Assembly (NCBI RefSeq): GCF_003019035.1
Contig: NZ_CP027447.1
DNA length: 64,000 nucleotides
Strand: one strand, 5' to 3'
From: Escherichia coli
Lineage (GTDB): Bacteria > Pseudomonadota > Gammaproteobacteria > Enterobacterales > Enterobacteriaceae
Position numbers and translations under genes: made by a program. The notes below the pieces were generated by a model that worked only from the letters and a program-made list of their open reading frames with translations, ran no database searches and was not told the origin of the DNA. Below are positions 21,445 through 37,958 of this stretch, piece after piece. Every line of letters begins with the position of its first letter. The first letter of the stretch is position 1.

Positions 21445-21582
21445 GCTTTTATCCTTCTCTGGTGTTGTCTGGGAAGTGTAGAGCATGGCAGGGCGGAGTG
21501 CCTGGAGTGTGACAAAGGTTACACATCGCTGAGTGTAATGCTGAAAATTTCAGCACTTAGCGAGATGCGAGCAAGCTGGCGC

Positions 21583-21610
21583 TTGCATGGTGGCGTGCGA
21601 CAGGTATAAT
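21583..21610 (+). promoter_or_regulatory. Candidate sigma70 promoter of leuX
   Basis: TTGCAT (21583-21588), 16-bp spacer, TATAAT (21605-21610), about 30 bp upstream of the tRNA 5' end. Confidence 0.55.
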
Positions 21611-21639
21611 CCACAACGTTTTCCGCATACCTCTTCAGT

Positions 21640-21724
21640 GCCGAAGTGGCGAAATCGGTAGACGCAGTTGATTCAAAATCAACCGTAGAAATACGTGCCG
21701 GTTCGAGTCCGGCCTTCGGCACCA
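21640..21724 (+). tRNA. leuX: tRNA-Leu (anticodon CAA), 85 nt with long variable arm and encoded CCA
   Basis: GCCGAAGTGGCGAAATCGGTAGACGCAGTTGATTCAAAATCAACCGTAGAAATACGTGCCGGTTCGAGTCCGGCCTTCGGCACCA: acceptor stem GCCGAAG/CTTCGGC, anticodon loop tTCAAaa, T-arm GGTTCGAGTCC. Confidence 0.95.
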
Positions 21725-21913
21725 TACAAAGCTTTTTTTAAGTCTACTAACGTCTACTTTAGTCCATAAAAACAGTAAGTTAAGCGAGTTTCTGACTTGG
21801 CTTAGTCTGTTAACGTCTACTCAATTCCTTGAACATATACCAACCGATGATGGTATAACTGATGGTATTCCCGGTTCGATTGATTTTGATACCAACACAG
21901 GAGGTATCAACTG

Positions 21914-23161
21914 ATGGCTCTCACGGATATCAAAGTTAGGACTACCAAGCCCTCTGACAAACCCTTCAAACTTACTGATGGGCAGGGTATGCACCTCCTG
22001 GTCAACCCCAATGGTTCAAAATACTGGCGACTCCAATACCGTTTCGATGGCAAACAAAAAGTTTTAGCATTGGGTGTTTATCCAATGGTCTCTCTTGGTG
22101 AAGCTCGCAGGAAACGAGATGAGGCCAAAAAGTTGGTATCTGATGGTATCGACCCTTCCGAGAAGAAAAAAGCAGACAAGATCGAGCAGAGCGAAGCCCT
22201 GACATTCGAAGCTGTTGCAAGGGACTGGCATACTGCCTGTAAAAGGAAATGGTCAGATTCCCATAGTGAAAGGGTTTTAAAGAGCCTTGAAGACAACCTT
22301 TTCTCTTCCATAGGACAGAGAAAAATAGCCGAGCTTAAAACTAAGGATCTTCTCGAACCAGTCAAAACTGTTGCGGCTTCTGGACGACTAGAAGTAGCTG
22401 CTCGTCTGCAACAACGAACCACAGCAATCATGCGATATGCCGTCCAGAATGGCTTAATTGACTACAATCCAGCACAAGATATGTCTGGGGCAATTACAGT
22501 TGCGAAACGAACCCACAGACCAGCCTTACCATTTGATAGGTTCTCAGAGCTTTTAGAGCGCATTGAAAGCTTTAAAGGTAGGAAACTTACTAAATTAGTT
22601 GTGAAGCTGACATTGCTCATTTTTATCCGTTCCAGTGAACTCCGATTCGCAAGATGGTCGGAGATCGACTTTGAAAATGCGATGTGGACTATCCCTGGAG
22701 AACGCGAGCCATTACCAGGAGTCAAACATTCCCATCGAGGCTCAAAAATGAAGACCCCACACCTCGTGCCGTTAAGTCGTCAGGCCTTAGAACTTCTAAA
22801 AGTCATCAGAGAAATCAGCGGTGAATGCGACCTTGTATTCATTGGCGATCATGATTTCAGAAAACCTATGAGCGAAAACACAGTCAACAAGGCACTAAGG
22901 TCAATGGGTTATGACACAACCGTTGAGGTATGTGGGCATGGTTTTAGAGCAATGGCTTGTAGTGCTTTGATCGAGTCAGGAAAGTGGTCGAGAGATGCTG
23001 TTGAACGGCAGATGAGCCATCAGGAGCGGAACTCCGTTCGTGCCGCATACATTCATAAAGCTGAGCATTTGGACGAGCGTAGGTTGATGTTGCAGTGGTG
23101 GGCTGATTATCTTGATGAAACAACTAAGAGAAGAATTGCACCTTTCGATTTTAATAACTAA
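21914..23161 (+). CDS. P4-family tyrosine integrase (tRNA-associated)
   Basis: 415-aa protein with N-terminal Arm-type domain (MALTDIKVRTTKPSDKPFKLTDGQGMHLLVNPNGSKYWRLQYRF) and C-terminal catalytic region (..HGFRAM.., ..RAAYIH..); sits next to the tRNA as expected for IntB-like integrases. Confidence 0.9.
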   Translation: MALTDIKVRTTKPSDKPFKLTDGQGMHLLVNPNGSKYWRLQYRFDGKQKVLALGVYPMVSLGEARRKRDEAKKLVSDGIDPSEKKKADKIEQSEALTFEAVARDWHTACKRKWSDSHSERVLKSLEDNLFSSIGQRKIAELKTKDLLEPVKTVAASGRLEVAARLQQRTTAIMRYAVQNGLIDYNPAQDMSGAITVAKRTHRPALPFDRFSELLERIESFKGRKLTKLVVKLTLLIFIRSSELRFARWSEIDFENAMWTIPGEREPLPGVKHSHRGSKMKTPHLVPLSRQALELLKVIREISGECDLVFIGDHDFRKPMSENTVNKALRSMGYDTTVEVCGHGFRAMACSALIESGKWSRDAVERQMSHQERNSVRAAYIHKAEHLDERRLMLQWWADYLDETTKRRIAPFDFNN

Positions 23162-23230
23162 CTGATTTTTATAAGTAAAATGGCGTATTCAATAACCAAT
23201 TGAGACGCCATTTTTTTATTTGCGATTTAT

Positions 23231-24142
23231 GTGCTATTACGAAGTAAAGCTTTTTACAACGGAGTGGCATTAATGAAATCTTGGGTAAAAATGAATAGTT
23301 GGACATCAGAAGACACCAAAGCAGTGAAAACGTGGTTTGATTTGGACAAATATCGAGAGTTTGAAAACATTTCTATTAATATGCTTTACCATGAAATATG
23401 GGCGAGAACCTATTTTTTCAAACCAGTAATAGAAGAAGGAATGCAGAACACAGTATTGAAAAATTATATGCAGATATTGGATGGTGATCCTTTTCTTATC
23501 AAAGAGAAGCACTTAAATTATATGGATGCCGAAAATAAATTATATCAACCCCCATACTTTTTTATTACTACTGTTGATCGAATAGCAAATATCAGTTTTG
23601 ATTGTATGAGAAAGGCTTTATTCATTAGAGCAAATACAGAACAATATAAAATTGATTCCACTATTGAAAATGAATATATTTCCGAAAAAATTCCTGAACA
23701 GTTTCCTACTACGATTATGTTAGAAATCGATCTTGCGGGTGGAAGCGATGATGAGATAGCTGAGGCCCTGCGAGTATCATTACCACAATGGCGAAAAGTA
23801 AAAGGCGTTAAACCTGCACCACTTGATGCAGTCAGATTTGGTTATGGGGCAATAAAAAAATTAATTAGCTATCGAATTATTCCTATGCTTGATTTGCTCG
23901 CATGGTCAGAAAGAAAAAAAGTACTTCTGTCAGACGACAGATTATCTCGATTGCTATACACGGATGAAGATGATGATAAGGCGATTCGCCAAGGATATCA
24001 TATAAGAGATGCTGATCGGCCTTTCGCAATGAAAACTGTAGAAATTGATTTTTTAAGGCAATTTAACTTTTTTATCAATAAAAATCAGCATGTTAAAGAA
24101 ATGAGGGTTTCGGATGTTATGAAACTCTCAGATTCTGAGTGA
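23231..24142 (+). CDS. Hypothetical protein (303 aa), island cargo, no recognisable motif
   Basis: Long AT-rich ORF (GTG start in track; internal ATG candidates) between integrase and alpA. Confidence 0.5.
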   Translation: MLLRSKAFYNGVALMKSWVKMNSWTSEDTKAVKTWFDLDKYREFENISINMLYHEIWARTYFFKPVIEEGMQNTVLKNYMQILDGDPFLIKEKHLNYMDAENKLYQPPYFFITTVDRIANISFDCMRKALFIRANTEQYKIDSTIENEYISEKIPEQFPTTIMLEIDLAGGSDDEIAEALRVSLPQWRKVKGVKPAPLDAVRFGYGAIKKLISYRIIPMLDLLAWSERKKVLLSDDRLSRLLYTDEDDDKAIRQGYHIRDADRPFAMKTVEIDFLRQFNFFINKNQHVKEMRVSDVMKLSDSE

Positions 24143-24262
24143 TATGAATATCCAGAGACTCATAGTTTCGAGCCAAGGATGGCTCTGGTGTTCGTAATCT
24201 CGCTTCATCCATTCGAAATTCATTTGTACTGTAGCCCTGTAGACACAACAGAGGACATACAC

Positions 24263-24466
24263 ATGGAAAATCAAGCTCGTCTCATCCGTTTACCAGAAGT
24301 CATGAAGAAAACTGGATTTGGTAAAGCGTGGATCTATAGGCTTATCAGCAAGGGATGTTTTCCTCAACCAGTAAAAATTGGTCTTCGTGCAGTAGCTTTT
24401 GTAGAGAGCGAAGTAGATAATTGGATCCATGAAACGATTAGTTCTTCGAGAAATAAAGTTTCTTAG
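24263..24466 (+). CDS. alpA: AlpA-like phage/island transcriptional regulator (small HTH, 67 aa)
   Basis: MENQARLIRLPEVMKKTGFGKAWIYRLISKGCFPQPVKIGLRAVAFVESEVDNWI has the AlpA-family pattern (RLP.V...TG......Y......FP.P.K.G.R...W...E...W); the track ORF is extended upstream. Confidence 0.75.
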   Translation: MENQARLIRLPEVMKKTGFGKAWIYRLISKGCFPQPVKIGLRAVAFVESEVDNWIHETISSSRNKVS

Positions 24467-24913
24467 AAAATAAATAAAGAATATTAACACAAATTGTTAG
24501 ACTTTATGGTTGATGTTAATTAAGAGACGATTATGGTATATTAATATAATTTATGAGGTTGAATCCATTTTAAAAAATGGGGTAATAAAAAGGGGCTGTT
24601 TAGAAGCAATTACGCATTGTTATTCTAAATATGAACTAATTAATTATAAAATATCTTTTTTATTTTAAAATGATTATTGTGGTTCTTTCTTCAAATGTCA
24701 ATTTCCTTAACCTATTAAATTAGTGGATCACCGTAATGTATAAGAGTGAACCGTTTGTATTAGATTTTACTTATGAATATTTAGTCGTTTTCACTCAGGC
24801 ATCAAATTGTTGATGAATATATGTTGATTTTGATTCAAAACGAAATAGTCTATTTCTTATACATTTGATATAAAGGGTTATATTGGTATGCTGTACATCA
24901 GAAATGATATGCT

Positions 24914-25168
24914 TTATTTGTTTTTCGCTAATGCTACATATCGTCTATAATATGCAATTGCGCTATATTTTGTCGTATTCATTTTTTCAGCAACTTCTTT
25001 CCATTTTAAACCTGATGATCTTAGTTCAAAAGCAAGCTTTCTTTTTTCAGTTGCTACCCTTTCGTAATTCTCACGGCTAATGCCGTAATATTTTATCACT
25101 GTTGAACGAGATACACCTGCAGCCTTAGCTAAGTCTTTTGCTTTAATTAATTTCCCATGAATTATCAT
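24914..25168 (-). CDS. Small HTH DNA-binding protein (84 aa), co-transcribed downstream of the Rep-like gene
   Basis: HTH-like segment AKDLAKAAGVSRSTVIKYY; its start overlaps the stop of the upstream gene by 4 nt. Confidence 0.5.
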   Translation of the reverse strand: MIIHGKLIKAKDLAKAAGVSRSTVIKYYGISRENYERVATEKRKLAFELRSSGLKWKEVAEKMNTTKYSAIAYYRRYVALAKNK

Positions 25169-26013
25169 AATAATGCCTCCAATGCTATTTCTAATTTTTT
25201 TTGCGTTTTTCTTGTTTTTTTTGCTCTTATTGATTGTATTGTCGAAAATTTCTGAATTGAAAAATTACGCCATGTCCATTTACAAATACTGCTACAAATT
25301 TGTTTTGTCTCTTCATGAGATAATGGATTATGAGGGTTGCTATGATTATTAAGTAAAGTCGCTTTTGATAGCATATCATAAAAAAAACAACGATAGTTTT
25401 TACGTTTTTTAAAACTTAATACTTCTTTATAAGCAATAATTCTTAAATCTTCGAATAAGTTAACGTTGCGGCCCAACCCATGTATAACACTTTTCTTTTT
25501 ACTCGAAATTCTTATTTTGTCTGGGATAAAATCTAAGAGGTATTGTAGATCATATGCTGAAGTATTTGTCCATGTCGTTCTCCATTCATGAATGTTGAGA
25601 GGGTTTTTCATTAAAACATCAGCATAAGCTCTGTCTGCATCTAACCTTTCTGTAAATCCACTCTGAACAATAGCGGCCAATTTTAAAGGCTTATCTCTTG
25701 CCATGTCTGTTTTTAATACCGGATTTTTTAAAGCATAAAGTAAATGAGCATGGCCATTTTTTATGTTTTGTATGATCGTATTTGGTATTGGTAAACCAAC
25801 TAAGTCCCATGCGACCGCTCCATATTTGTGATCTATATCAAAAACCAAACCGTTAATAAAAGATTTGTTATTAAAACAAATATATTTCTTTAGAAGGGCT
25901 TTGTCTTTAGGGGCTCTGTATACCCCATCTCTAAAATCATCACAGCATAAAGCATATTTTTGAATTTGCAGCTTGTATTTTTCTACATTATATATATTTT
26001 CGTCATTTAACAT
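25165..26013 (-). CDS. Replication initiator-like protein (Replicase/primase-like N-terminal domain)
   Basis: 282-aa protein with FDIDHKYGAVAWDLVGLPIPN and NGHAHLLYAL (HxH) motifs reminiscent of plasmid/satellite Rep proteins; family assignment is by motif resemblance only. Confidence 0.5.
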   Translation of the reverse strand: MLNDENIYNVEKYKLQIQKYALCCDDFRDGVYRAPKDKALLKKYICFNNKSFINGLVFDIDHKYGAVAWDLVGLPIPNTIIQNIKNGHAHLLYALKNPVLKTDMARDKPLKLAAIVQSGFTERLDADRAYADVLMKNPLNIHEWRTTWTNTSAYDLQYLLDFIPDKIRISSKKKSVIHGLGRNVNLFEDLRIIAYKEVLSFKKRKNYRCFFYDMLSKATLLNNHSNPHNPLSHEETKQICSSICKWTWRNFSIQKFSTIQSIRAKKTRKTQKKLEIALEALL

Positions 26014-26561
26014 TTATAATCTCCTTATTGTATTCTCCATTTTATTGTATTTTTCTAAAAAGGAGATGCATATTATTTTTATAATTATTTAATAAGGGAT
26101 TTTAAAAGTTTGTCAAGTGTCTAAAAGCCATATCAGATATTAGGTGTTTCTTTTAGGGTTATAATAACAAGAGGGAGGTGCTTCAATGACAATATAAATG
26201 ATGATAGTTTTTTTTAAGTGCAGCTCATAAATCATTATGGCATATTGTAATATGATTACTTTTTATCTGATTAAAAGTAAATATCGATCGCAGATCTTTT
26301 AATTTAATTGTTAATTCAATAATCTGGTCTTGTCAAATTTTCATGGTTAAACTTCAACTTCCTTTATATACAAATCAGATATTTTAAATTTATAACAACA
26401 ATATTTGTAAGCCATAGGAGATATAGAATGTATAAGTTAATTTTTTTTCCAGTTAATACCTGTGATTGTTTTTATTTTGGCGATATAGTTCATTACTTGA
26501 CAATTTAAAAAAAGAATATATAAGTATTTAGATTGATATAGTTAAATTTAAGGATGGTACC

Positions 26562-26975
26562 ATGCAAAATACAAAGCTTAATATTATGGAGCGATATTTG
26601 ATACTGCTCGATAAGTTTGTCGATAAAATTATCGAATCAGGCGTTTCTGAACAACAATTGATCGAGAAGTCGTATCTGTTCTGTGCAGGGTATTATATTA
26701 AGTACCAGCAAGAAATTGAAAGGCTGACATTCTCAAATAAAGATGTCGTTTTAACATTTCTATTATTTTCATACTACAATTATATTAATGAGTTAGATAA
26801 TAATTTAATTAACAAAGTAAGGATGAGGAGAACATGTTCATTACTTATTAATTTCATTGTCGATAATGGTAGTCAGACAGAAAAAATTTATGTGCAGGAA
26901 AAAAAGAAGTACAAATCTTATACATTGAAAAGGGATTTATCAGTAAAGAATAAAAGGAAAAAATATGGTTTATAA
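26562..26975 (+). CDS. Hypothetical protein (137 aa)
   Basis: AT-rich ORF with plausible RBS (AAGGATGG) a few bases upstream; no recognisable motif. Confidence 0.4.
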   Translation: MQNTKLNIMERYLILLDKFVDKIIESGVSEQQLIEKSYLFCAGYYIKYQQEIERLTFSNKDVVLTFLLFSYYNYINELDNNLINKVRMRRTCSLLINFIVDNGSQTEKIYVQEKKKYKSYTLKRDLSVKNKRKKYGL

Positions 26976-27292
26976 CAATATGAAAACTTCCGTGATTTGA
27001 ATTTAAGGCTTTCACCTTATTATCCGATGCCTACATGAAAAATGCCAAAACTTACATAGCTTGCTCCAGCACAAGCAATGTAGAAATCAACTTTATCTCC
27101 TTTAAACATAATCGTGATTGTTTCGTTGCTTCCATGGAGTACCGATGGCAGGGATTTATATCGTTGTCTGGGACTGACCGTTATGCTTATTGTATAAACA
27201 TTTATCTTTGCTGCCAGAAGGGCTCAGACTGTAAGATTCGATAAGGATGCTAACATATTCTATTCGCGATTTTACCGTTCAAGATTTTAATT

Positions 27293-27964
27293 TTAAAATT
27301 GTATTGACTTAATAACGCTTCTGAGTGCGTTATCAAATCTTTGGCTTCTTCTCTTTATCCATTTAATGCAGGTAAAGCTTCCAAGTCGTGAGGCAAAATA
27401 GGTTAACCACATATATTTGTGTTCGTCAAAAACATATCCAGATTTAAACCCCCATGGCAATACAAAAAATGAAATAATCGCAATGCAACAAAGCAAGATA
27501 AATATGGTGGAAAAAAATTTAGGAACAGGCATCGCCCTATAATAAAATGCCATCGAAGCGTTAGGGAAAAGTACGGTGAGAAACGCAGGGATAATAATTG
27601 TCTTTCTATTTAAGTTGACTTCGTATTCACCCGTGGTTGTATTAACAATGAGAGCATCTTTGAAGGCACTAAATGAACCATTAACTCTATACTGGCGAAG
27701 CTCGTATTTACAAATTTTGTGAGATTTTATAAATGTGATACCAAAGGCTGGAATCTGTGTCTCATCCCCCGTATCGGTTTTAACCCAAACTTGGTCAGTA
27801 ATTGGGAGGGGACTGATGACAGTAGCAGAAAAGGTCTCAACGAACATGTAGGTTTCGCCGAACAACTCGAATTTAGGTGTTGTCATCTCAGCTTTCGTTT
27901 CCCGGCGACTTAACGGGTCAATGTTAACTTCTTTATTGCAGTGTTTCGTGATGGAGCTGCTCAT
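27293..27964 (-). CDS. Hypothetical protein with C-terminal transmembrane segments (223 aa)
   Basis: N-terminal soluble region followed by hydrophobic stretches (IIIPAFLTVLFPNASMAFYY, FSTIFILLCCIAIISFFVL). Confidence 0.45.
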   Translation of the reverse strand: MSSSITKHCNKEVNIDPLSRRETKAEMTTPKFELFGETYMFVETFSATVISPLPITDQVWVKTDTGDETQIPAFGITFIKSHKICKYELRQYRVNGSFSAFKDALIVNTTTGEYEVNLNRKTIIIPAFLTVLFPNASMAFYYRAMPVPKFFSTIFILLCCIAIISFFVLPWGFKSGYVFDEHKYMWLTYFASRLGSFTCIKWIKRRSQRFDNALRSVIKSIQF

Positions 27965-28249
27965 ACAAATTCCTATGTTTAAGATGAAATCAGATTCGAT
28001 GATGTATGAAATCGTTCAGTTCCAAAGATGGAATAATGTCTGCCATTTCCAGTACCGGTGCATTAATGAAAAGGATATAGACTAGTAAAATCATAATGTT
28101 AGCATTACAGTGTGAACTAACATTTTGACTAGGTTTACAGGAAACGCAAATCACTTGTACCGATCGATTAACAAATAATGATAGATTATAGCTATCAGTC
28201 TATCTTTATCGATCGGTATAAACGATCAATTTTAGGGGTATGTTGCTTA

Positions 28250-29518
28250 CTAAAATCTACATGTAAGGTGGTAATGTTGCCTTGGCGGCACTAAATTGCC
28301 GTCAAGTAAAGGCTCCACAAAAGTGTTTTTGGGATTGATGGGATGGATTTCTATCTTCATCGCTTCAGTGATGACTTGGTGCTTTGCGGGGCGTCTAAGA
28401 ATTGGGATTTTAAGTTGTCTCAGCAGACGATAAATCGTATCAAGGTAAGGGATGGTTTCCATCCATCTGAATGCTGAGACCTCGTAGCTTTGATTAGGCA
28501 TCTCTTTTACGGCTATAGTAGCTATCGCTTTCTTACTCCCTGCTAAAGCTTCCGAGGAACACTTCTCTTCTACATAAGCGACAGCACTTTCGTCTTTACC
28601 TGCATGCCTATCAATAATAAAAGCTTCGAAGGAGTTTTTAACGTTTTCCTTTAATATTTCGTTTGGATTCGCTTTAGTGATAGTTGCTTTTAGGTCAAAC
28701 AGAAAGCCGTTATCGCGTTCTGGTCTATAATCGAGTTTACCCTGCAAGGTCGACCATGAATAACACTTAGCTAATTGCGAAGCTTTGAAAGCAATCCCGG
28801 CGTATTCGAATGAGAAACCATTCATTTTACCTGTAGATGTGATATTGGGTAATGCATTAATATTTTGTTCAAAAAGCTGTTGGACAAACTCAGTGGTCGA
28901 TACTCTTTTAGAAACTAACGTCTCTAAAGCGTTCTGGATGATGGTTTTTGGGCATTGTTCACCTGTCCTTTTCTCTTGCATCGCTTCATTTCGTGTTTTT
29001 TTTCGTTTTAGTTTAGGGCAGGGCAATGCTAAAGAGGTTTTTGTTTTAGGGCCTTTGGTTCTTAGTAGCGAATAGTCGTGTTCAAGCTGTTGGATAATGC
29101 GTGTACTAATCAGGTTTTCATTTTTTCCGAGATAGAGTTTGCCTGTAATACGGTCTATGCGGCTGGCGATAATGTGGATGTGTTGACCGACCGCATCGTC
29201 ATGCAACACGTAGCATCTGAGATGCGTTTCCGAGAAGCCGATGCGCTTCATATAGTCATCAGCTATAGCGGACCACTGAGCATCGGTTAGCACTTCGTCC
29301 TTTGGTAAACGAAGCGAATTGTGCCAAACAGGTTTATCCACATCAGGGCGAAGCGTTTTTGTTAGATTGAATTCAGTGATCAGATCTTTCGCTGCACACC
29401 CATCCATATTTCCCCCGATCACGACAGGAGCTACCCTATGATGAGAATCTGGTTTTAACGTATAGAGGACGATCCCGATAAAATTCTTACCTCTGCGGAT
29501 CTTTTGCATTCCCTTCAT
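28250..29518 (-). CDS. Mobilization relaxase (MobA/MobL-type)
   Basis: Relaxase three-histidine motif HDDAVGQHIHIIASRID (HxDx4HxH); probable start MKGMQKIRRG at 29518 (track ORF extends to 29569); overlaps the upstream mobC. Confidence 0.75.
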   Translation of the reverse strand: MKGMQKIRRGKNFIGIVLYTLKPDSHHRVAPVVIGGNMDGCAAKDLITEFNLTKTLRPDVDKPVWHNSLRLPKDEVLTDAQWSAIADDYMKRIGFSETHLRCYVLHDDAVGQHIHIIASRIDRITGKLYLGKNENLISTRIIQQLEHDYSLLRTKGPKTKTSLALPCPKLKRKKTRNEAMQEKRTGEQCPKTIIQNALETLVSKRVSTTEFVQQLFEQNINALPNITSTGKMNGFSFEYAGIAFKASQLAKCYSWSTLQGKLDYRPERDNGFLFDLKATITKANPNEILKENVKNSFEAFIIDRHAGKDESAVAYVEEKCSSEALAGSKKAIATIAVKEMPNQSYEVSAFRWMETIPYLDTIYRLLRQLKIPILRRPAKHQVITEAMKIEIHPINPKNTFVEPLLDGNLVPPRQHYHLTCRF

Positions 29519-29924
29519 CGGAGTCTCCCCACAAGTCGGCGGTGATGAGATGTAAGCGAAGATCGGCAATTTGTCGCTTCACTGCAAATAGTTCCGTTTT
29601 TGTCAGGTGGCTTCCGGTACTTTTGTTATCAAGGTGGGCAACAATTTTATTTAGTTTCTGTGAAAGGTCAGCTAAAGATCTCCATGCTTTTATATTAATA
29701 GCTGGAACAACACCAGGAAGCGCATTAAGAAAAGATAAACGAAGCCATTCCCCTTTGCGATGCTGGCCACGTTTTTCATTTAGAAGCGTCAGCTCTTTAT
29801 CATTAAGCCTGACACTGACGCAATGATTACGAATTTGCTTGCGTGAAAGCTTCGTTTCGCAAGAGCTTCTACAGGAAGCTCGCGTATTTATAATAGTCTT
29901 ATTGAAATTATTATTACTGACCAT
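29487..29924 (-). CDS. MobC-like relaxosome accessory protein
   Basis: 145-aa basic protein with a MobC-like LSQKLNKIVAHLDNK motif (similar to the NLNQiARhlN signature), immediately upstream of and overlapping the relaxase gene. Confidence 0.6.
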   Translation of the reverse strand: MVSNNNFNKTIINTRASCRSSCETKLSRKQIRNHCVSVRLNDKELTLLNEKRGQHRKGEWLRLSFLNALPGVVPAINIKAWRSLADLSQKLNKIVAHLDNKSTGSHLTKTELFAVKRQIADLRLHLITADLWGDSDEGNAKDPQR

Positions 29925-30053
29925 ATTAACCTCTTTTTAAATATATAAATAAAAATATTATTTTATTTATATAATAAAATAGTCAGATGTCAATATACAT
30001 GTATTATATTGATTTTAACTTTTTTCAACTGAAAGGCGAAAAAACAAGGGGAA

Positions 30054-30085
30054 ACTCAATGAAGCAGCGTAGCGCTTCGTTGAGT
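30054..30085. promoter_or_regulatory. Candidate oriT inverted repeat upstream of mobC
   Basis: ACTCAATGAAGC...GCTTCGTTGAGT near-perfect inverted repeat (11/12 arms) in the AT-rich leader of the mobC-mobA operon. Confidence 0.4.
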
Positions 30086-30148
30086 TAGCCCTTGCTTTAA
30101 CAATATTGACCAAAATCTCTTTTTAATATAAAATGAATCCTAAGAGGG

Positions 30149-30724
30149 ATGGAGGTATACATGCTCAATGATAATAAAATTCGCACTGCATTAATAAATT
30201 TTTTACTGGCTAAAAAACCAGCGCCAGAAAGGATTATTGAAGAATTGCATATCGAGAACGGAAGAGCAATAGCTGATGTCGTAGCAGCATATAGTTATTT
30301 GCATTGCTACGAGATTAAAGGAGAGACTGATTCAATTGGAAGAATCCTTACTCAAGCTAATTATTATAATACTTCTTTCAACAAAATTACACTTGTAACT
30401 ACAAAAAATCATTTAACATGGGCATTAAAGCGTTCCCCATCCTTCTGGGGAATCATATTAGTAGAATTAAAAGATAATAACATTACTTTCAAATATATAA
30501 GGGGGGCTAAAGATAATATTTTCTTCAGAAAAGAAAATGCTTTCATGATGTTATGGAAGGACGAAATGTTGAAGGTAGCAAATGAAGCCTCTGTACCAGT
30601 TAAAAGATCACACACGAGGATGGAAATAGCCGAAATGCTTAGTAGTTCGCTTAAGAAAAGTGATGCTTTGCAAACTATACAAAGCATCATATCTAATCGA
30701 CTAAAATTAAGGGATGCAGTGTAA
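30149..30724 (+). CDS. Hypothetical protein with PD-(D/E)xK nuclease-like signature (191 aa)
   Basis: Motif ..ENGRAIADVVAAYSYLHCYEIKGE.. (hydrophobic-D ... E-I-K) matches the PD-(D/E)xK core pattern; convergent with and overlapping the 3' end of the three-gene operon. Confidence 0.5.
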   Translation: MEVYMLNDNKIRTALINFLLAKKPAPERIIEELHIENGRAIADVVAAYSYLHCYEIKGETDSIGRILTQANYYNTSFNKITLVTTKNHLTWALKRSPSFWGIILVELKDNNITFKYIRGAKDNIFFRKENAFMMLWKDEMLKVANEASVPVKRSHTRMEIAEMLSSSLKKSDALQTIQSIISNRLKLRDAV

Positions 30725-31822
30725 AACAAACTTAATATGTGAAGTCAGCATGGCTTTAATCCAGGATGAGGGATTACCTGCTTTATCTGGTTTTTTAGGC
30801 GAATAACTACTTCTATCATAAACATATTGTTCCCCATATGAGAATGTAGTTGCCCTGAAGAATTTTTGGTCATGGATTATTGTGGCAATATCATAATATT
30901 GACCATTTCCTCTCTCATCATTCTGGAAAGATCCACCTCTAACACAAAACATATTATTCTTATACGTATAAAATACTTTTGGTGCGGAAACTTTTCTAAA
31001 TAGCTTCGGATCTAAATCTATATCAGAATAATCAGGGCTAACAATTCCATAATCCCCGTATATAATATTACCAATTTTCTTTTCGTTAACTAATGTGTCC
31101 CAAATTTTCCACTCCGCTCTCGTGAACGATTTTCTTTGATAGGTTTCAAGTAATGAGGAAATATTAGCCGGTATCGAAGAGGCTGATATAATGCACTTAT
31201 CAAAGTGAAAGTCTTTATTTACATTTAGAATAAAGTATTCAGCCATGTCAGTTAGTCGCTTTATGTCAGTTGGCTGAATGTATCGTAGATCTATAATTAA
31301 GTGCAATTGTTCTACTTTCAGATTTCTAATGATTACCATCATCTTCAAGAGATGCATTTTTGTTATTTTATAGCTCTCAATATCTTCAGCAACTAACCTT
31401 ATGGCTAATTTCCCTCCGTTAATTGATAGGCTATCGTAAACACTTTTATTGTGTTTCTCTAATCGGTTGATACCGATCACAGGAATATATAAGTAATCAC
31501 GAAAAAGAGATAGTATATATTCGTATTGCTCCACTCCATCAATTAATATTTCATCATCCAGGTCATAATTATCTATGTAAAATTCCATGTTTTTAAATAA
31601 AGCTTTATTATCCAATCTCTTTTTGAAAGAATGAGCTTTATTCAATACATTTTCCATTGTTTGATTATTTGATTCTCTTGGTATATCGAAGAATGGAGTG
31701 ATTTGTGTGAAGATTGTAGCATCTTTTTTGTAAAGCTCTTCGAGGGCTTGAGTTTCGTTGCTTTTTGCTTTTAAAAATGGGATATATTTACTCATTGAAA
31801 CCAAGCTCCCTTCTGACATCAA
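30707..31822 (-). CDS. Hypothetical protein (371 aa), third gene of the ImmA-containing operon
   Basis: Long AT-rich ORF whose start overlaps the stop of the ImmA/IrrE gene; no recognisable catalytic motif. Confidence 0.6.
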   Translation of the reverse strand: MMSEGSLVSMSKYIPFLKAKSNETQALEELYKKDATIFTQITPFFDIPRESNNQTMENVLNKAHSFKKRLDNKALFKNMEFYIDNYDLDDEILIDGVEQYEYILSLFRDYLYIPVIGINRLEKHNKSVYDSLSINGGKLAIRLVAEDIESYKITKMHLLKMMVIIRNLKVEQLHLIIDLRYIQPTDIKRLTDMAEYFILNVNKDFHFDKCIISASSIPANISSLLETYQRKSFTRAEWKIWDTLVNEKKIGNIIYGDYGIVSPDYSDIDLDPKLFRKVSAPKVFYTYKNNMFCVRGGSFQNDERGNGQYYDIATIIHDQKFFRATTFSYGEQYVYDRSSYSPKKPDKAGNPSSWIKAMLTSHIKFVLHCIP

Positions 31823-32717
31823 TTGAATTAACTAAACTTGAGAAGATAACATAATTTTTGTGTTTATTTCTTACCGCACCAGCAGCGATTATTGGGTGTA
31901 TATTAAATCTTTCGCAGACAGATATTAGACTATCAGGTTCATTAAATGTCCGAAAGACAGCTCTATTTGCTTCTCTGGGTATCAGACTATCAGCTGCGGC
32001 TCTGTTAGCCTCAATCTCTACGTCTGTTTCTGTGTCAATGTCTAAATCATCGAGGATTGGCGTATCTAATTTATCATAGTGCAGAGCAATGTGGGATAAT
32101 TCATGCATTAATGTAAACCAAAAGTAATCATATCTCGAATATCTTAAACTTAGACCTATGACTGGTGTTTTATTTGGTAAACAAAAGGTACAGCCATCTA
32201 ACTTCATACCTTTGAATGATTTTTCAATTATTAGAATAATACCATATTCTTCTTTAAGGATTCTTGAAATATAATGAATAGATTGTACATCCCTGCTCAA
32301 ACTTGCAATTATTCCGAGGTTTTCAAAATCCAGATCTGTGAAGACCTTTGTATTTCCTTTTAAATAGGTGTTTAATGACTTTTTTTCTATTAATGATAAC
32401 CATAAATTTATGAGTTCAGAATTAGCATCATCTCTTTTTCTAAATAGTTTATTTTTGTTAAATGTTAAATTTTTTGCTACATCAAGTAGGAATTGATTTT
32501 CGTTTTCCATTTCTGGTTTACGGGAAATAATATCTTTTATTTTTTTGCTGTTTTTTATCTTTTGGAAATTTAGTAAAATTTCCAAATCAGACTCACTAAA
32601 CTGATTTGATACAAAGAAATCTTTCTCATGCGGCATTTGAAATTCCTCCGAGAGTTGATGCGACAACCTGTGATGCCTCATAAAATCGGAGATTTTCTTT
32701 TTCATGGTCGACGCCAA
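31788..32717 (-). CDS. ImmA/IrrE-family Zn-metallopeptidase (COG2856-type) with ~190-aa N-terminal extension
   Basis: HExxH motif WFTLMHELSHIALH followed by the third zinc-ligand region EIEANRAAADSLIP, characteristic of ImmA/IrrE peptidases. Confidence 0.8.
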   Translation of the reverse strand: MASTMKKKISDFMRHHRLSHQLSEEFQMPHEKDFFVSNQFSESDLEILLNFQKIKNSKKIKDIISRKPEMENENQFLLDVAKNLTFNKNKLFRKRDDANSELINLWLSLIEKKSLNTYLKGNTKVFTDLDFENLGIIASLSRDVQSIHYISRILKEEYGIILIIEKSFKGMKLDGCTFCLPNKTPVIGLSLRYSRYDYFWFTLMHELSHIALHYDKLDTPILDDLDIDTETDVEIEANRAAADSLIPREANRAVFRTFNEPDSLISVCERFNIHPIIAAGAVRNKHKNYVIFSSLVNSIDVRRELGFNE

Positions 32718-33273
32718 AATCAGTCATGCCAAGATGGTTATAGAAACCCTCTGCACTTGGGAGTGCATGTAGGCAAAAACCAGGTCTATACCCCCAGTTT
32801 GAACAGGCATAATTAATTGTATGTTGGATAAGCTCTTTGCCTACTCCACTATATTTAGGGGTAAAGTTAGGACGAGGACGATTCCAGTATGCTGTTGCAA
32901 TATAATCCACGTAGAAAATTTTATTATTATCAAATCGACTTTCTTTTGGATGGTAAAGAACACAAACACCTTGAACTGCGTCGTTTATTTGCAGAAAAAA
33001 CCACTGATAATCATCACCATTACATTGCAAAAGCTTGCGGCACCAGTCCCAATGCCAATCAGAAAGGCTGTTATCTGCCAGAATTTTCCTTGCTAACTCG
33101 TTATCAGTGGCCATACCGGGGTTAGCAGTAATTAGAGCTGACAATAAATCAGCACGATAGGCACCCCATTTGCTCTGCAAGTCAACCACTTTAGCATAGT
33201 CAATCCCTACGTGAATTTGGTAATCAACTGATTTTCCTGAACAATTTTCAACGACCATAAGCTCCCTTTCCAT
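32626..33273 (-). CDS. GNAT-fold acetyltransferase-like protein (215 aa), first gene of the operon
   Basis: GNAT-like motifs ..FYVDYIATAY..RP.....GVGKELIQ.. and ..SAEGFYNHLGMTDFG..; its stop overlaps the start region of the ImmA gene. Confidence 0.5.
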   Translation of the reverse strand: MERELMVVENCSGKSVDYQIHVGIDYAKVVDLQSKWGAYRADLLSALITANPGMATDNELARKILADNSLSDWHWDWCRKLLQCNGDDYQWFFLQINDAVQGVCVLYHPKESRFDNNKIFYVDYIATAYWNRPRPNFTPKYSGVGKELIQHTINYACSNWGYRPGFCLHALPSAEGFYNHLGMTDFGVDHEKENLRFYEASQVVASTLGGISNAA

Positions 33274-33505
33274 TGTGTCGGCTCATTTTGACTAATAATA
33301 CAACTTTATAGTCTTTAAGAATGCTCTGCTGGTCAAATTTCTTATTTGATCTATAGAAGGCTATGTTTTGAAGCTGGTTGTTAATCTGGTTATGATGTGG
33401 TCATATTAGAATTGGTAAATCAAACCAATTTTGTTGGTATGAATGATGGTATCTTCGCTAATGTAATATGCTTTATTCACTAAAAATCATAAGGATAGTT
33501 GCGAT

Positions 33506-33529
33506 GTTCGAGTCCGGCATCCGCACCAC
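33506..33529 (+). repeat. Degenerate direct repeat of the leuX 3' end (candidate att site at the distal island boundary)
   Basis: GTTCGAGTCCGGCATCCGCACCAC versus leuX GTTCGAGTCCGGCCTTCGGCACCA: 13 identical bases followed by 8 of 11 matching with one gap. Confidence 0.5.
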
Positions 33530-34203
33530 ACTGTATGCAAATCGAGTCGCTCAAGAGCGGCTTTTTTTGTGTCTGAAATCACCCATATCCGTGCAGTATA
33601 TAGGCCTGCCAGAAAAGCAATTCAGTATTCTTCATTTTGTAGTCGATGGTCCCAAGTTTGCTCTGGCTGGAAGCTGCATCGTCCACATTACGTGGGCAGG
33701 GTGGTTTCGCTATGCTACTTGAACGTTTTGACCATGTGGCTCAGGTAGCATATCAAAAGACGTCATTTTGTCTCCACGCCCACCTTGGTGAACATTCAAT
33801 AAATAGTTTCGGTCGAGAGCAGTTATGTAGGGCTAGCAGACGAAATGCGCAGACATCTTGTTGAAGACAATTTTACTGACCACCTGAGAACGCTATTCTA
33901 CCGAATAATATTTATTATCTTGGTGAATAATGATGATTACCTGTGTAACTATGGTTTTATGCTGATGGGACCGGCAGTACAATTTCTGTAGTGTACTCGC
34001 AATTTCAGGTCTCTGGCGTTTATTCTGGTGCAAAGGATGTATGTGATGAAAACTTTGCTACCATGCCATTAAATGCGACCAATATCGGATTATCCATCAG
34101 TTGCTTGTTGTAGATTTCATTGGTTATAAAAATGCAAGGTGTAAAAGATGAAATTTATAATTATTAGTTAAGTGGCTAGTTTTATAGTAATTTAGACAAT
34201 AGG

Positions 34204-36252
34204 ATGTATGGAAAAATGGAAAAAGTTTATGATACCACTAGAATTAGTAATCTTGCTAACGACCCGAAACAGTTTTGTTCTTTTTTTTGTGAGTACATAA
34301 AAAGAGATGATATTAGTATAGATATCGCCTTGGATGTGCTGAGAATATCTTCCATCTATTATAATAGATTTTCAGTTCAGACTGAAGTTGAGTATAACAA
34401 TACATTCAAAAAATGTATTAATGAGCTAGTAAACTCATTTCCTGATAACATTGAACTAATCTCTGAGTTCGAGAGTCAATGTAAAATTATGCATGATATA
34501 AATAATTCTTTCTTTGCGGCTACAAAATGTGCTGGTATTTGGCGTAAAAATACAAAAAAATCACATGCATTAATACTTAATCTCATCATGTTTTGTGAGA
34601 TGTTTTTATCATTATTATCATCCTTGGTTGTGGTCAATGATCCTAAAAAAATGAAGAGGATTTTTCCATTGTTTATCGTTTCTGAAAATATTAATATTCA
34701 TGCTGAACCTGATATCGAATATTTTCGAGTTATCGATAGGGCATTTGATGAGGTAGCCAATTACACCGGAAGAATATTTTCTTATTTACGGACTCATGGG
34801 CCATTGAAACTAACTTCTTGTGTGAATAAACAAACCTTGCTTTCAATGGGAGGGTACCTTAATGAGTGGAATGTTTTTGACTCATTAAGCAGAGTAAGAG
34901 ACTTTTTCAGACTAAGTAGTGCAGTATTTACAAAATTGGATAATAACATTTACTCTCTTGAGGTTGATAGTTTTTGTTTATACCGAGATTATGAGATTGC
35001 AAGAAATAGACTAATGATGAGAGCGTCACATCTATATAGCGAAGTTCATGAATTTAGTAACAAACATTTTCATCTAAATAGTTGGGTAAAGGATCATATG
35101 CCATCTTACTTAAATTCTGATGGCGTTTTTAGCTCATTTCATCTAAGCGAGTTGGAAAATATGTCTCCTGATGACCTTCATGAAGAATATGGGAATATAT
35201 CATTATTTAATTGGGTGCACGCTTATCAATGTTTAGTCGAGTTATCTAAAGAAGAAATGAGCAAAAGATTTTCATCGACAAAACCTATACCCCTACAGTT
35301 GGATCGCTGGCTGATCATAAAAAGCCGTGAGAGTTGGTTATCATTCTTTCAACGTAAGGGGATTGCAGTAGATGCAGCAAAAAAACTGATAGATTATTTT
35401 ACCTTCAATTCAAAATCACATGATCTTAATGATTGCCCATTTATTCCCTGTATGGACGGTTTATGCTTAATGCCTGCATTAATAGCAAATAGCTCAGTGA
35501 CTCGCTCTCTAATGTCATTATTTGGTTCCAAAAAAATTTCTCAAGCAAGTAAAGGGCGATTTCATGAGCAACAATTTATAAAACAAGTTCGTGATGCGGG
35601 GATTAAAGCTTCTCCAATTGATGCTCATGCTAATTATCAGTGCGATTGCGTGATTCTCCTGGATGATTGTTTGATTTTTACAGAACTAAAATCAAATGGT
35701 CAACCAATATATTATGGTAAGTACTATCAGCAAGTGTGTAACATCGTTGGAGATAGCTCATTAATACATGATCATAATAATAAATTTATGCGTTCTTATT
35801 TTCAACAAATAAATCGAATTTCTGAACATTATCTTAATCATCTTAATGTGATCATTAAAGAATTCGAACTACCATCAACATGGCAACCCAAAGGTGTGTA
35901 TAAGCTTATTGTTACTACAACTATGCTCGGTGGGAAATATCATGTGGATGATACATATGTAGCGGACAAATATGCATTATCTAGTTTTTTTCAACGAATA
36001 CCTGGAGTGATATATCAAACAAATGAAAATGGAAAAATGGCGAAAAATATCATTGATGGGTTTGAGTGTTGCGAAGGGGAAATCACTATCGATAAGTTTA
36101 TAGATTATCTTTCCTCTTTGCCCAGTATTAATGCTGTACGTAAAAATATAAAAAAATTAACTTATAGTGTTCGATTTAATGAAAAATTAGTCCATCACCC
36201 TTATTATGATTCTTGGGCTTTTGGCCCATATATTCGTAAGGGAAATGATTAG
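34204..36252 (+). CDS. Large hypothetical protein (682 aa), AT-rich, possible C-terminal PD-(D/E)xK-like motif
   Basis: Uninterrupted 2 kb ORF with strong terminator downstream; C-terminal stretch CDCVILLDDCLIFTELKS has a D...E.K pattern; otherwise unrecognised. Confidence 0.6.
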   Translation: MYGKMEKVYDTTRISNLANDPKQFCSFFCEYIKRDDISIDIALDVLRISSIYYNRFSVQTEVEYNNTFKKCINELVNSFPDNIELISEFESQCKIMHDINNSFFAATKCAGIWRKNTKKSHALILNLIMFCEMFLSLLSSLVVVNDPKKMKRIFPLFIVSENINIHAEPDIEYFRVIDRAFDEVANYTGRIFSYLRTHGPLKLTSCVNKQTLLSMGGYLNEWNVFDSLSRVRDFFRLSSAVFTKLDNNIYSLEVDSFCLYRDYEIARNRLMMRASHLYSEVHEFSNKHFHLNSWVKDHMPSYLNSDGVFSSFHLSELENMSPDDLHEEYGNISLFNWVHAYQCLVELSKEEMSKRFSSTKPIPLQLDRWLIIKSRESWLSFFQRKGIAVDAAKKLIDYFTFNSKSHDLNDCPFIPCMDGLCLMPALIANSSVTRSLMSLFGSKKISQASKGRFHEQQFIKQVRDAGIKASPIDAHANYQCDCVILLDDCLIFTELKSNGQPIYYGKYYQQVCNIVGDSSLIHDHNNKFMRSYFQQINRISEHYLNHLNVIIKEFELPSTWQPKGVYKLIVTTTMLGGKYHVDDTYVADKYALSSFFQRIPGVIYQTNENGKMAKNIIDGFECCEGEITIDKFIDYLSSLPSINAVRKNIKKLTYSVRFNEKLVHHPYYDSWAFGPYIRKGND

Positions 36253-36275
36253 AGCAATTTATTATATAGTCCATG

Positions 36276-36330
36276 TTATTCACTGATTATATTATTGATA
36301 ATATAATCAGTGAATAACTCTAATTTTTTT
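36276..36330 (+). terminator. Rho-independent terminator after the 682-aa gene
   Basis: 17-bp perfect inverted repeat TTATTCACTGATTATAT / ATATAATCAGTGAATAA (36276-36317) followed by a T7 run at 36324-36330. Confidence 0.7.
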
Positions 36331-36650
36331 AATGTTGGGGTTTAGCCTGAAGTTGAAATTGGTACTACGGAACGGTATGATCATATCGCATCAAAATATC
36401 AAGGTAGTGATGATTTTCTACGCACCGATCCAGAAATGTGGATTTTATCATCACCATAAGCAATGGCAGCGACAACACCATCAATTTCTATATCAAAGGT
36501 GGTAAAATAAATTAGAAAATTGTTTATTTAATCCATTAGCGATAAGTTTTATTGTTATTTAGCCGAGATATATTCCATTGAAAAAAGTAAATTGGCACTG
36601 ATATTATATCAAATGGGAATAATCCTTTTGTAAATAAGCTGAGGAATGTG

Positions 36651-36830
36651 TTAATTCACATCCAGCGCCTTATAAACCGCATCAACCGGTTCTGAGTAAA
36701 AACTTACCTGAAACTTGGTAAACAACTCTGCCGGAACTGTTGGAATATCCATAGCCGAGGATATCGGCAACAGAACTCGTTTTGCGCCGCTATCGAAGGC
36801 GAGTTGTAAACTAGCGGCAAGATCCTGCAC
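36651..36830 (-). pseudogene. Orphan 3' gene fragment (about 59 codons), probable remnant of a deleted gene
   Basis: Minus-strand frame translating ..VQDLAASLQLAFDSGAKRVLLPISSAMDIPTVPAELFTKFQVSFYSEPVDAVYKALDVN-stop with normal GC content but no upstream continuation; adjacent plus-strand fragments are also present. Confidence 0.3.
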
Positions 36831-36874
36831 TGATTATGTCAGCAATATTGAACATACTGCGATAGTTATCAACC

Positions 36875-37747: not shown

Positions 37748-37958
37748 TGATATCCCTGGCAGTGAAATAATTGCGATCATGCTCGCAAATTTTCTGCTGT
37801 TCAAGCCTGCAAGTGAAGATATATTACCTTGATCTCATTTGTTTTTTTGCTGCCTGTGTACCCTAATTGCCATGCGATGTTGCACCGACGCAAACCACCG
37901 TTTACGCCGGAGGAGTTAAAAGCGCTGATGGATGCAAATAAATCAAATTAATGAACGC

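Follow-up and report, generated by a model that had tools for sequence, protein, structure and literature searches.

Positions 21725-33528 of the Escherichia coli contig window analyzed here are very probably an 11.8-kb integrative mobilizable element (IME), inserted site-specifically in the 3' end of the tRNA gene leuX. The window is the whole stretch of DNA that was analyzed, 64,000 nt of contig NZ_CP027447.1, and all positions refer to it unless another locus is named. The insertion is precise, and the element combines a P4-type integration module with a plasmid-type replication module and a relaxase/MobC pair. Its site is delimited by the following features.

21640-21724, plus strand: leuX, tRNA-Leu(CAA), called by ARAGORN and matching the Rfam tRNA family at 59 bits; the integration target, intact after insertion
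21701-21724, plus strand: core of the left attachment site (attL), the leuX 3' end, GTTCGAGTCCGGCCTTCGGCACCA; direct-repeat partner of 33506-33528
21837-21895, no strand assigned: left-arm TGGTAT/GATGGTAT repeats, of which two are in direct tandem and two inverted; potential arm-type sites for integrase binding, shortly before the int gene
33412-33452, no strand assigned: right-arm TTGGTA/GATGGTAT repeats, ~55 nt from the core; likewise potential arm-type sites for integrase binding
33506-33528, plus strand: core of the right attachment site (attR), an element-borne imperfect copy of the leuX 3' end, GTTCGAGTCCGGCATCCG-CACCA

The tRNA-Leu(CAA) gene is the single tRNA that ARAGORN found in the window, and its 85 nt are the same as those of the tRNA in genomes with an empty site. 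The insert that follows measures 11,804 bp at 35.5% GC, compared to 49.1% upstream, and the GC content falls directly after the tRNA from ~50% to 26-42%. The two att cores (GTTCGAGTCCGGCATCCG-CACCA at 33506-33528 and GTTCGAGTCCGGCCTTCGGCACCA in the tRNA) form a 23/24-nt imperfect direct repeat, in which attR differs from attL by two substitutions and a 1-nt deletion. The attL core includes the entire 20-bp P4 attP core GAGTCCGGCCTTCGGCACCA. In E. coli strain 06-00048 (L001), the tRNA ending in ...GCACCA is followed directly by CATCGTATGCAAATCGAGTCGC, which equals the window sequence from 33529; at the same point CATCGTATGCAAATCGAGTCGCTCAAGAGCGG stands directly after the tRNA in that strain and its counterpart CACTGTATGC... 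after the repeat at 33529 in the window. A second locus (L002) is likewise empty to the base. The match spans 4,699 bp in 06-00048 and 16,501 bp in the window, a difference of 11,802 bp that is near the 11,804-bp insert length. A megablast search of 21500-38000 against 5,426 complete E. coli genomes returned many in which leuX is joined directly to the block downstream of the repeat, and none that covers at least 80% of the query. Since the empty-site genomes join leuX directly to the post-repeat sequence, the boundaries of the element are exact.

A first-pass annotation of the same DNA had proposed an AT-rich element of about 12 kb at leuX, with a degenerate repeat of the tRNA 3' end as its distal boundary, and had suggested searching other E. 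coli genomes for an empty site. Size, composition and location hold, and the empty site exists, as in 06-00048 with its ~11.8-kb difference in span. The repeat is a real boundary and coincides with the element end to the base, but it ends at 33528 and not at 33529, and is thus one base shorter than had been given. The element is indeed more AT-rich than the DNA upstream; low GC extends to ~37900 (37.8% in 33529-37900, 47.1% beyond) because a separate islet adjoins the element downstream. In K-12, leuX is followed by the intB pseudogene and the cryptic prophage PR-Y, in agreement with the suggestion that a different element occupies this site there.

Comparison of three genomic contexts defined the attachment site of the element itself. 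The element-side att copies of the window, E. coli S19-651 (L003) and Klebsiella (L006) carry aggatagttgcgat just upstream and the same 1-nt deletion, with differing downstream DNA, which indicates that the repeat is the element's own attP arm. The local chromosome sequence resumes right after CACCA in all three, placing strand exchange at the very 3' end of leuX. The 11.8-kb element has four copies of GATGGTAT, three of them in the two ~200-bp ends, where inverted TGGTAT half-copies are also found. In the reconstructed attP, two tandem copies lie ~55 nt upstream of the core and, downstream at the start of int, two tandem copies lie between two inverted ones. This geometry closely parallels that of the annotated P4 attP arm repeats; the repeat sequence itself differs.

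The integration/excision module comprises three genes.

21914-23161, plus strand: tyrosine integrase of P4 type, 415 aa; full-length identity to P4 Int 58%, PHROG phrog_1 (integrase) at 6e-66
23273-24142, plus strand: DUF6387 protein, 289 aa; PF19924, 8.1e-77
24263-24466, plus strand: AlpA/Vis-like small helix-turn-helix (HTH) protein, 67 aa; Phage_AlpA PF05930 at 6.7e-18, PHROG "excisionase and transcriptional regulator"

Judged by its proteins, this module is clearly related to that of P4. The integrase open reading frame starts 190 nt downstream of the tRNA, and the precomputed Pfam domains of a 97%-identical Klebsiella homolog are Arm-DNA-bind_3, Phage_int_M and Phage_integrase. The AlpA gene matches P4 ORF88 in tblastx (42% over 60 aa, E 2e-10), which we take to be Vis, the P4 excisionase, and its product is a putative excisionase/regulator. 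The DUF6387 gene is kept alongside int and alpA in all relatives examined, with ratios of non-synonymous to synonymous substitution rates (dN/dS) of 0.05 for DUF6387 and, against the Klebsiella copy, 0.06 for int. An AlphaFold model of the DUF6387 protein, built from an alignment of 8 sequences, reached a pLDDT of 37 and was unusable.

The replication module lies on the opposite strand.

24914-25168, minus strand: HTH-like protein, 84 aa, downstream of rep; corresponds to the small "plasmid replication protein" that related plasmids encode
25165-26013, minus strand: replication initiator of the Replicase family, 282 aa; PF03090, 6.2e-29
26089-26149, no strand assigned: conserved non-coding block upstream of rep, ~64 bp; 78% identical to its pKAM621_5 equivalent

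Rep (dN/dS 0.13) shares 70% identity with its counterpart on the 4.9-kb Citrobacter plasmid pKAM621_5; with the Reps of three other ~4-kb enterobacterial plasmids, the identity is 61%. The layout of rep followed by the small gene recurs in pKAM621_5, with 69% nucleotide identity over the block, and in a Serratia plasmid. This 4.8-kb Serratia plasmid carries mobC, relaxase, small rep protein and Rep together, so that the rep and mob genes of the element together resemble a small mobilizable plasmid. The conserved non-coding block at 26089-26149 is a candidate rep promoter or control region. The AT-rich intergenic regions of the element also contain short repeats of uncertain meaning.

The mobilization module carries a relaxase, a MobC-family protein and two conserved cis-elements, one of which is a candidate origin of transfer (oriT).

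28112-28226, minus strand: cis-element B (block B), a nested hairpin followed by ~50 near-invariant nt, ATCGATCGGTACAAGTGATTTGCSTTTCCTGTAAACCYAGTCAAAATGT; between the relaxase and 223-aa genes
28250-29518, minus strand: relaxase with MobA/VirD2-type nuclease domain, 422 aa; PF03432 8.8e-24, NCBIfam TraI/MobA(P) 8e-17
29487-29924, minus strand: MobC-family accessory protein of the relaxosome, 145 aa; its gene overlaps the start of the relaxase gene
29965-29993, minus strand: promoter-like TTGACAT ... TATAAAT for the mobC-relaxase operon; both hexamers conserved in an alignment of eight relatives
30021-30098, minus strand: candidate oriT (block A); on the mob strand AAGCAAGGGCTAACTCAACGAAGC-loop-GCTTCATTGAGTTTCCCCTTG, then TTTTTTCGCCTTTCAGTTG

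The best models for the relaxase are MobB/TraI-MobA(P), and its nearest plasmid relatives are small mobilizable plasmids: it is 57% identical to a Salmonella small-plasmid relaxase and 37% identical to that of an IncQ2 plasmid typed MOBP. A search at E<=1e-20 gave 3,079 homologs, and the top-scoring ones include many on chromosome-sized Enterobacterales contigs. The 145-aa protein matched no family in the Pfam, NCBIfam or PHROG libraries, yet is 38% identical (E 4e-18) to the RefSeq MobC WP_013250886 of the IncQ2/MOBP plasmid pIPM1H6qnr, and 28% identical (E 2e-6) to a protein encoded upstream of a related Pseudomonas relaxase.

Block A is contained in a ~95-bp non-coding stretch upstream of mobC, with 25-nt inverted-repeat arms followed by TTTTTTCGCCYTTCRGTTG and single-stranded DNA-fold z-scores of -4.8 and -4.9. 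It is conserved in six elements with only ~63%-identical relaxases, and its signature AGGGCTAACTC-hairpin-GAGTTYCC is found again ahead of the mob genes in a Pseudomonas plasmid with a 47.6%-identical relaxase. Block A is our preferred candidate for oriT. Block B is near-invariant across six elements with similarly distant (~63%-identical) relaxases and is conserved more than block A and the flanking coding sequence. It has a DNA-fold z-score of -3.6 and contains TTTCCTG; among plasmid records, it matched only a related Salmonella 3.6-kb record and gave one short chance-like match. Block B could be an alternative oriT, the promoter/operator of the 223-aa gene, or a priming site. With respect to nic consensus sequences, the CGCCYT of block A may be MOBQ-like and the TTTCCTG of block B MOBP-like, two readings on which none of the conclusions is based.

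Two further proteins complete the backbone of nine genes.

26562-26975, plus strand: 137-aa conserved backbone protein; same position in all relatives, dN/dS 0.10
27293-27964, minus strand: 223-aa conserved backbone protein with a hydrophobic C-terminal half; always after the relaxase gene in relatives

Neither protein matched a family in Pfam, NCBIfam, PHROGs or PADLOC, and a sensitive search with the 223-aa protein among 1.84 billion proteins returned 20 representatives, none of them informative. The element lacks transfer machinery of its own: none of its 13 proteins matched a type IV secretion system (T4SS), type IV coupling protein (T4CP) or phage structural family in NCBIfam, and subsets searched against PHROGs, PADLOC and Pfam gave the same result. 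The first-pass annotation had listed the P4-type integrase directly 3' of the tRNA, the AlpA-like regulator, the Rep-like initiator with a small HTH protein and the MobC/MobA pair, together with the lack of conjugation and structural phage genes. All of these were borne out at the level of protein families or homologs; its inventory omitted the 3.4-kb cargo described below, the DUF6387 gene and the two conserved proteins.

Horizontal transfer between genera is evident from a Klebsiella locus (L006; its 96%-identical relaxase belongs to a cluster named for K. michiganensis), where the nine backbone genes all recur at leuX, beside an ahr-like gene. The backbone genes of the E. coli and Klebsiella copies are 93-98% identical at the nucleotide level and gap-free, whereas the adjacent ahr is 77.8% identical; the break falls at leuX. 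Together with its presence in 3 of 5,426 complete E. coli genomes, this shows that the element does not consist of vertically inherited core genes, which the first-pass annotation had named as an outcome that would refute it. All nine backbone genes are intact, and dN/dS values of 0.05-0.42 against the Klebsiella copy show that they are under purifying selection. The synonymous divergence (dS) from the Klebsiella copy is uneven: int and DUF6387 stand at ~0.28, mobC at 0.31, and rep, the 223-aa gene and the relaxase at 0.05-0.08. This spread of 0.05-0.31 suggests mosaicism, with module-by-module recombination between element lineages.

The cargo has been exchanged between these copies. The E. 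coli and Klebsiella elements cease to be homologous at ~30100, just past block A, and align again from ~20 nt ahead of the attR core. In Klebsiella (L006 4039-9419), this slot from oriT to attR contains two N6/N4 methyltransferases and a BfiI-DBD protein (methyltransferase or restriction-modification type). More distant relatives, with ~63-65%-identical relaxases, occur in E. coli, Salmonella, Pectobacterium and Kosakonia and retain the DUF6387, AlpA, 137-aa, ~221-aa, relaxase and MobC genes. Their slots (L014, L017, L021 and L023, upstream of 9595) each hold different defense-type genes: a Pycsar-like cyclase with PycTM, SIR2, HxsD with radical-SAM genes, DUF6119, CTD1/MComp1 with an SMC-type protein, and a DNA methylase with a histidine-kinase-like ATPase. 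Some relatives are located at tRNA-Thr(CGT) and have an integrase 40% identical to that of the window.

In sister elements, the HTH and Rep genes are replaced by a four-gene module (L031 15652-20199; L017 12811-17358; equivalents in L014 and L021-L023) whose products are two tyrosine recombinases of ~401 and ~437 aa, one protein of 543-631 aa and one of ~132 aa. This module could be a GInt-type cassette, a kind of cassette reportedly cited in Hochhauser 2023, or could include a MOB_M-type relaxase. MOB_M-type relaxases resemble tyrosine recombinases (bioRxiv 10.64898/2026.01.13.699239). At leuX, about 20 E. coli genomes contain a sister element whose int-DUF6387-alpA region matches that of the window at 95-97% identity. 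Since the sister elements lack HTH and Rep, and the Rep type is found in 3 of 5,426 genomes, the element of the window is a rare Rep-bearing variant. In E. coli MSI001, the relaxase region of a sister element is broken by two IS3-family copies (L031 21740-25802), and the downstream nanS is truncated.

In the window, the cargo region (30101-33490) spans 3.4 kb, ~29% of the element, and contains four genes.

30161-30724, plus strand: cargo gene 4, sce7726/P4-cII-like protein; NCBIfam sce7726_fam 9.4e-44, PADLOC "cll" 7e-23
30707-31795, minus strand: cargo gene 3, Beta-family protein; Pfam Beta_protein PF14350 2e-52, PADLOC PD-Lambda-2_C 2.6e-47
31788-32636, minus strand: cargo gene 2, ImmA/IrrE (M78) metallopeptidase with HEXXH motif; Pfam Peptidase_M78 1.4e-9
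32626-33258, minus strand: cargo gene 1, GNAT-fold protein, 210 aa, of a rare family; assigned by AlphaFold and Foldseek

The GNAT-fold protein was predicted with a pLDDT of 87. All of its Foldseek matches in the PDB are GNAT acetyltransferases, with the toxin-antitoxin (TA) toxins KacT and AtaT among the top matches. The identification came from the fold search only: a profile of the family (10 clusters) against PDB sequences gave nothing meaningful, and PADLOC gave no match for the protein. The M78 peptidase matches PADLOC PD-Lambda-2_B at 3e-47 over profile positions 175-396 of 402 only, and the N-terminal HTH part is missing. The relationship of the Beta protein to its P4 namesake is at the profile level only, as tblastn against phages did not return P4 and BLASTP against P4 beta was not significant. 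Cargo gene 4 is convergent with the other three, and its product is 25% identical to P4 cII (E 5e-14). The arrangement of all four genes, orientation included, is conserved around homologs of the GNAT gene in Pantoea (55%), Burkholderia (45%) and a metagenome contig (37%), in otherwise unrelated neighborhoods. In the Pantoea sp. locus (L024 2440-9098), the four genes lie right after a P4-type integrase, beside genes of prophage-regulatory type, namely a CI repressor, Phage_CP76 and a second integrase. The four-gene module thus also travels with P4-type integration modules outside the IME family of the element.

Two described systems share components with this cluster. Gop-beta-cII, a system with TA/abortive-infection behavior, gives protection from lambda and P1 (PMC9122126). 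In PD-lambda-2, component B is toxic, A neutralizes B, and the Beta component is needed for defense (PMC9519451). The cargo resembles Gop-beta-cII of P4 (gop > beta > < cII) in its Beta-family and cII-like proteins, convergent layout and TA-like gene overlaps, but has no Gop, and BLASTP of the GNAT protein and the peptidase against P4 Gop gave no match. It resembles PD-lambda-2 in its Beta protein (C), an M78 peptidase domain matching B, and again TA-like gene overlaps, but has a GNAT fold in place of the HigB-like A and no Xre HTH on the peptidase. It also has four genes as compared to three in each of these systems. On these components, the cargo is outside both systems; by analogy with them, it would most likely act as a TA-like abortive-infection anti-phage system.

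Taken together, the modules suggest how such an element might move. We propose a sequence of excision, replication and mobilization, for which experiments on PIMEs (Pseudomonadota Integrative Mobilizable Elements) give a precedent in elements with int, alpA, rep and mob genes: these excise, replicate, are mobilized by IncP plasmids and carry immune systems (bioRxiv 10.64898/2026.01.12.698999). In the element studied here, the P4-type integrase would recombine attP, consisting of the imperfect copy of the tRNA 3' end and the TGGTAT-type arms, with the last bases of leuX, leaving an intact tRNA at attL. The AlpA/Vis-like protein, possibly with the DUF6387 protein, would direct or activate excision to a circle, which the small-plasmid-type Rep and its small HTH partner may maintain or amplify. 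MobC and the MobA/VirD2-type relaxase would then assemble at the conserved oriT, preferably block A, and the nicked strand would leave through a coupling protein and a mating channel, neither encoded by the element and both supplied by a conjugative element in the same cell. In the recipient, it would recircularize and integrate at leuX. The slot from oriT to attR is the site of exchangeable cargo.

Several observations weigh against an active IME of this kind. The rep-mob backbone is rare (3 of 5,426 complete E. coli genomes), and a Rep search of species-representative genomes returned no relatives. The predicted attP junction had no match in genome or metagenome contig collections, and the two substitutions in the attR core of the window are absent from the S19-651 and Klebsiella copies and might lower excision. 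A replication origin (oriV) was not located from repeats or from plasmid comparison. Block A has no DNA-level plasmid match in PLSDB, so that no helper plasmid can be named, and block B competes with it as oriT. Finally, the proposed defense role of the cargo is a deduction from homology, and the Gop and HigB-like components are absent.

Some of these points would also be expected of a now-immobile relic, fixed at leuX with degenerate att sites and retained only for its cargo. Decay does occur in the family, as the IS3-disrupted sister element of MSI001 at leuX illustrates, and the rarity in E. coli, the lack of an attP junction in public assemblies and the attR differences, both substitutions being specific to the window, would fit such a state. 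The 1-nt deletion of attR is, however, a conserved feature of the attP arm and not decay. The nine backbone genes are intact, gap-free and constrained (dN/dS 0.05-0.42), the cis-elements are conserved, and near-identical backbones occur in two genera in different downstream contexts. We therefore regard a relic as improbable and favor an element that is still mobilizable.

A P4-like satellite or phage-inducible chromosomal island (PICI), induced and packaged by a helper phage and not conjugally transferred, would explain the 58%-identical Int, the use of leuX, the attP arm geometry, the AlpA gene matching P4 ORF88, a beta/cII-like locus that adjoins att and int as in P4, and the size of 11.8 kb compared to 11.6 kb for P4. 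An integrase, AlpA and a primase-like Rep also form the front end of Gram-negative PICIs. The packaging side of a satellite is nevertheless absent. The exact 19-nt P4 cos sequence was not found in the element, and blastn with the P4 cos region gave chance-level matches only; there is no homolog of alpha, epsilon, sid, delta or psu, with blastn and tblastx matches to P4 confined to int, att, cII and ORF88; and the PHROG scan of a subset of the proteins yielded no packaging, capsid or terminase family. What the element has instead is a complete relaxase/MobC/oriT module under purifying selection, and we consider a phage-packaged satellite very unlikely. The first-pass annotation had offered "mobilizable island or satellite-like" as alternatives; the former stands, and the latter describes the P4-type integration/excision module only, without packaging or capsid-hijack genes or cos. 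That the element is instead a small mobilizable plasmid with an acquired integrase, mostly autonomous and only occasionally parked in the chromosome, is hardly credible: its Rep and small gene are 69% (nucleotide) and 70% (amino acid) identical to those of a 4.9-kb plasmid and the 4.8-kb Serratia plasmid joins the same rep and mob module types, but no PLSDB record matches the oriT region at the DNA level, all 57 of 57 megablast matches of the backbone (23200-30140) to E. coli replicons were chromosomal with none on plasmids, every copy with enough recovered flank is integrated at leuX (several Logan contigs are too short for both ends), and no attP-containing contig was found.

The chromosomal IME that we favor may, as a tentative extension that we hold to be possible but doubtful, be a "helper-switch" chimera, in which the phage-hijacking and alpha-primase genes of a P4-satellite chassis were replaced by a small-plasmid Rep/Mob core. 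The chassis features in common with P4 are Int, a Vis-like excisionase, the attP geometry, a beta/cII locus by att and a length of ~11.7 kb. In the same extension, the cargo would be a functional four-gene anti-phage system in which the GNAT protein replaces the Gop/HigB-like toxin. If true, the chimera would be a direct evolutionary bridge from phage satellites to conjugation-dependent IMEs, and the GNAT/M78-peptidase/Beta/cII-like cargo a previously uncharacterized anti-phage system.

More generally, leuX islands of Enterobacterales can combine P4-type integration parts with plasmid-type replication and transfer parts, and the Rep module is interchangeable with the four-gene recombinase module of sister elements at leuX. 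The oriT-attR slot acts as a site for exchangeable defense-gene cassettes, and the cargo found there points to a four-gene relative of Gop-beta-cII and PD-lambda-2. The element is compact and cleanly delimited, with an assignment for each of its modules, an empty site available and natural cargo-swap variants in another genus. It could thus be a practical model for the spread of defense systems between genera by hitch-hiking on conjugation.

A hairpin with a T-run lies downstream of attR at 33544-33563, and because the same sequence follows leuX at empty sites, it is the native leuX terminator. It is now 11.8 kb from the tRNA, and attL has an element-derived T-run, TACAAAGCTTTTTTT, without an obvious hairpin. 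The Rfam scan found no known RNA besides the tRNA, and promoter and terminator scans gave background levels only. The separate low-GC islet (33529-37900, 37.8% GC) is also present in empty-site genomes. It encodes a 682-aa protein (34204-36252) that matched nothing in Pfam, NCBIfam or PHROGs and only marginally in PADLOC, and a phosphorothioated-DNA-binding HNH restriction endonuclease (36875-37804; NF045808, 2e-131). Beyond this nuclease, other strains have an HNH endonuclease gene of which the window retains a truncated remnant. Since it has no integrase, the islet looks like an old defense islet fixed at leuX. In E. coli S19-651 (L003 18231-24081), the element is in tandem with a second leuX island, whose first gene encodes an integrase (72% identical); genes for a Ser/Thr kinase and a HerA-type helicase and further genes come next. 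This tandem is an example of island accretion at one tRNA site.

Our literature search returned no description of the element or its wider family, and we compared it with the known families that it most resembles. It has the features by which IMEs are generically defined: site-specific integration with att repeats and an empty site, its own relaxase and oriT candidate, and no mating-pair formation or coupling protein. Excision and helper-borne transfer are suggested indirectly by the near-identity across genera and by the cargo exchange. Small Replicase-family plasmids, such as Citrobacter pKAM621_5 and Serratia marcescens NZ_OW967880, share the Rep (70% at the amino acid level), the small downstream protein and the block upstream of rep. 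In NZ_OW967880, mobC and relaxase also adjoin rep, with a relaxase that is only 33.5% identical. Unlike the element, these plasmids are autonomous 4-5 kb replicons without an integrase or att site.

EARL/ROD21-like islands (e.g. ICEKp258.2; PMC10763509) are likewise enterobacterial, low in GC and inserted at the 3' end of a tRNA gene by a P4-related integrase; they carry defense-type cargo and have a relaxase but no full T4SS. DUF6387 is named once in the same paper, and a link to the DUF6387 gene of the element would be our own suggestion. EARL islands use Asn-tRNA genes, encode TraD, a 506-aa MOBQ relaxase and type IV pilus genes, measure ~27 kb and have a recombination directionality factor at the distal end (PMC10763509); the element has none of these. 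Lacking the Asn-tRNA site, TraD, MOBQ relaxase and pilus genes, the element is outside the EARL/ROD21-like islands.

The phage satellite P4 (X51522/NC_001609) resembles the element in the leuX site, the 58%-identical Int, the tandem and inverted attP arm repeats, the Vis/AlpA-type small HTH protein, the convergent beta/cII locus and the length (11.6 kb compared to 11.8 kb). The element has nothing that corresponds to the P4 alpha primase-helicase, cos, sid, delta, psu, epsilon and gop. In their place are a plasmid-type Rep, relaxase, MobC and candidate oriT, which suggests that the helper would be a conjugative element and not phage P2. Without cos and hijack genes, the element is outside the P4-like satellites and PICIs.

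PIMEs resemble the element in overall design. They are chromosomal IMEs with int, alpA, replicase and mob genes and a large accessory region with immune systems; near-identical copies occur across genera, and their Rep has relatives on small mobilizable plasmids. They are defined in addition by trbJ and trbL, and no element protein matched TrbJ or TrbL in NCBIfam or Pfam; the 137-aa and 223-aa proteins, the only two without an assignment, match no family. The repA described for PIMEs is RSF1010-like, whereas the Rep of the element is of the PF03090 type. Different subfamilies of PIMEs reportedly have one attB in common, adjacent to guaA, whereas the element is at leuX; most PIMEs measure ~20 kb compared to 11.8 kb; and their oriT resembles that of IncP helpers, whereas the candidate oriT of the element has no plasmid match. 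The lack of trbJ and trbL, the other Rep type and the other integration site place the element outside the PIMEs. IMEs that replicate, mobilize and carry immune systems have thus already been described, and current concepts are not challenged by the element, which is functionally analogous to PIMEs without being one of them.

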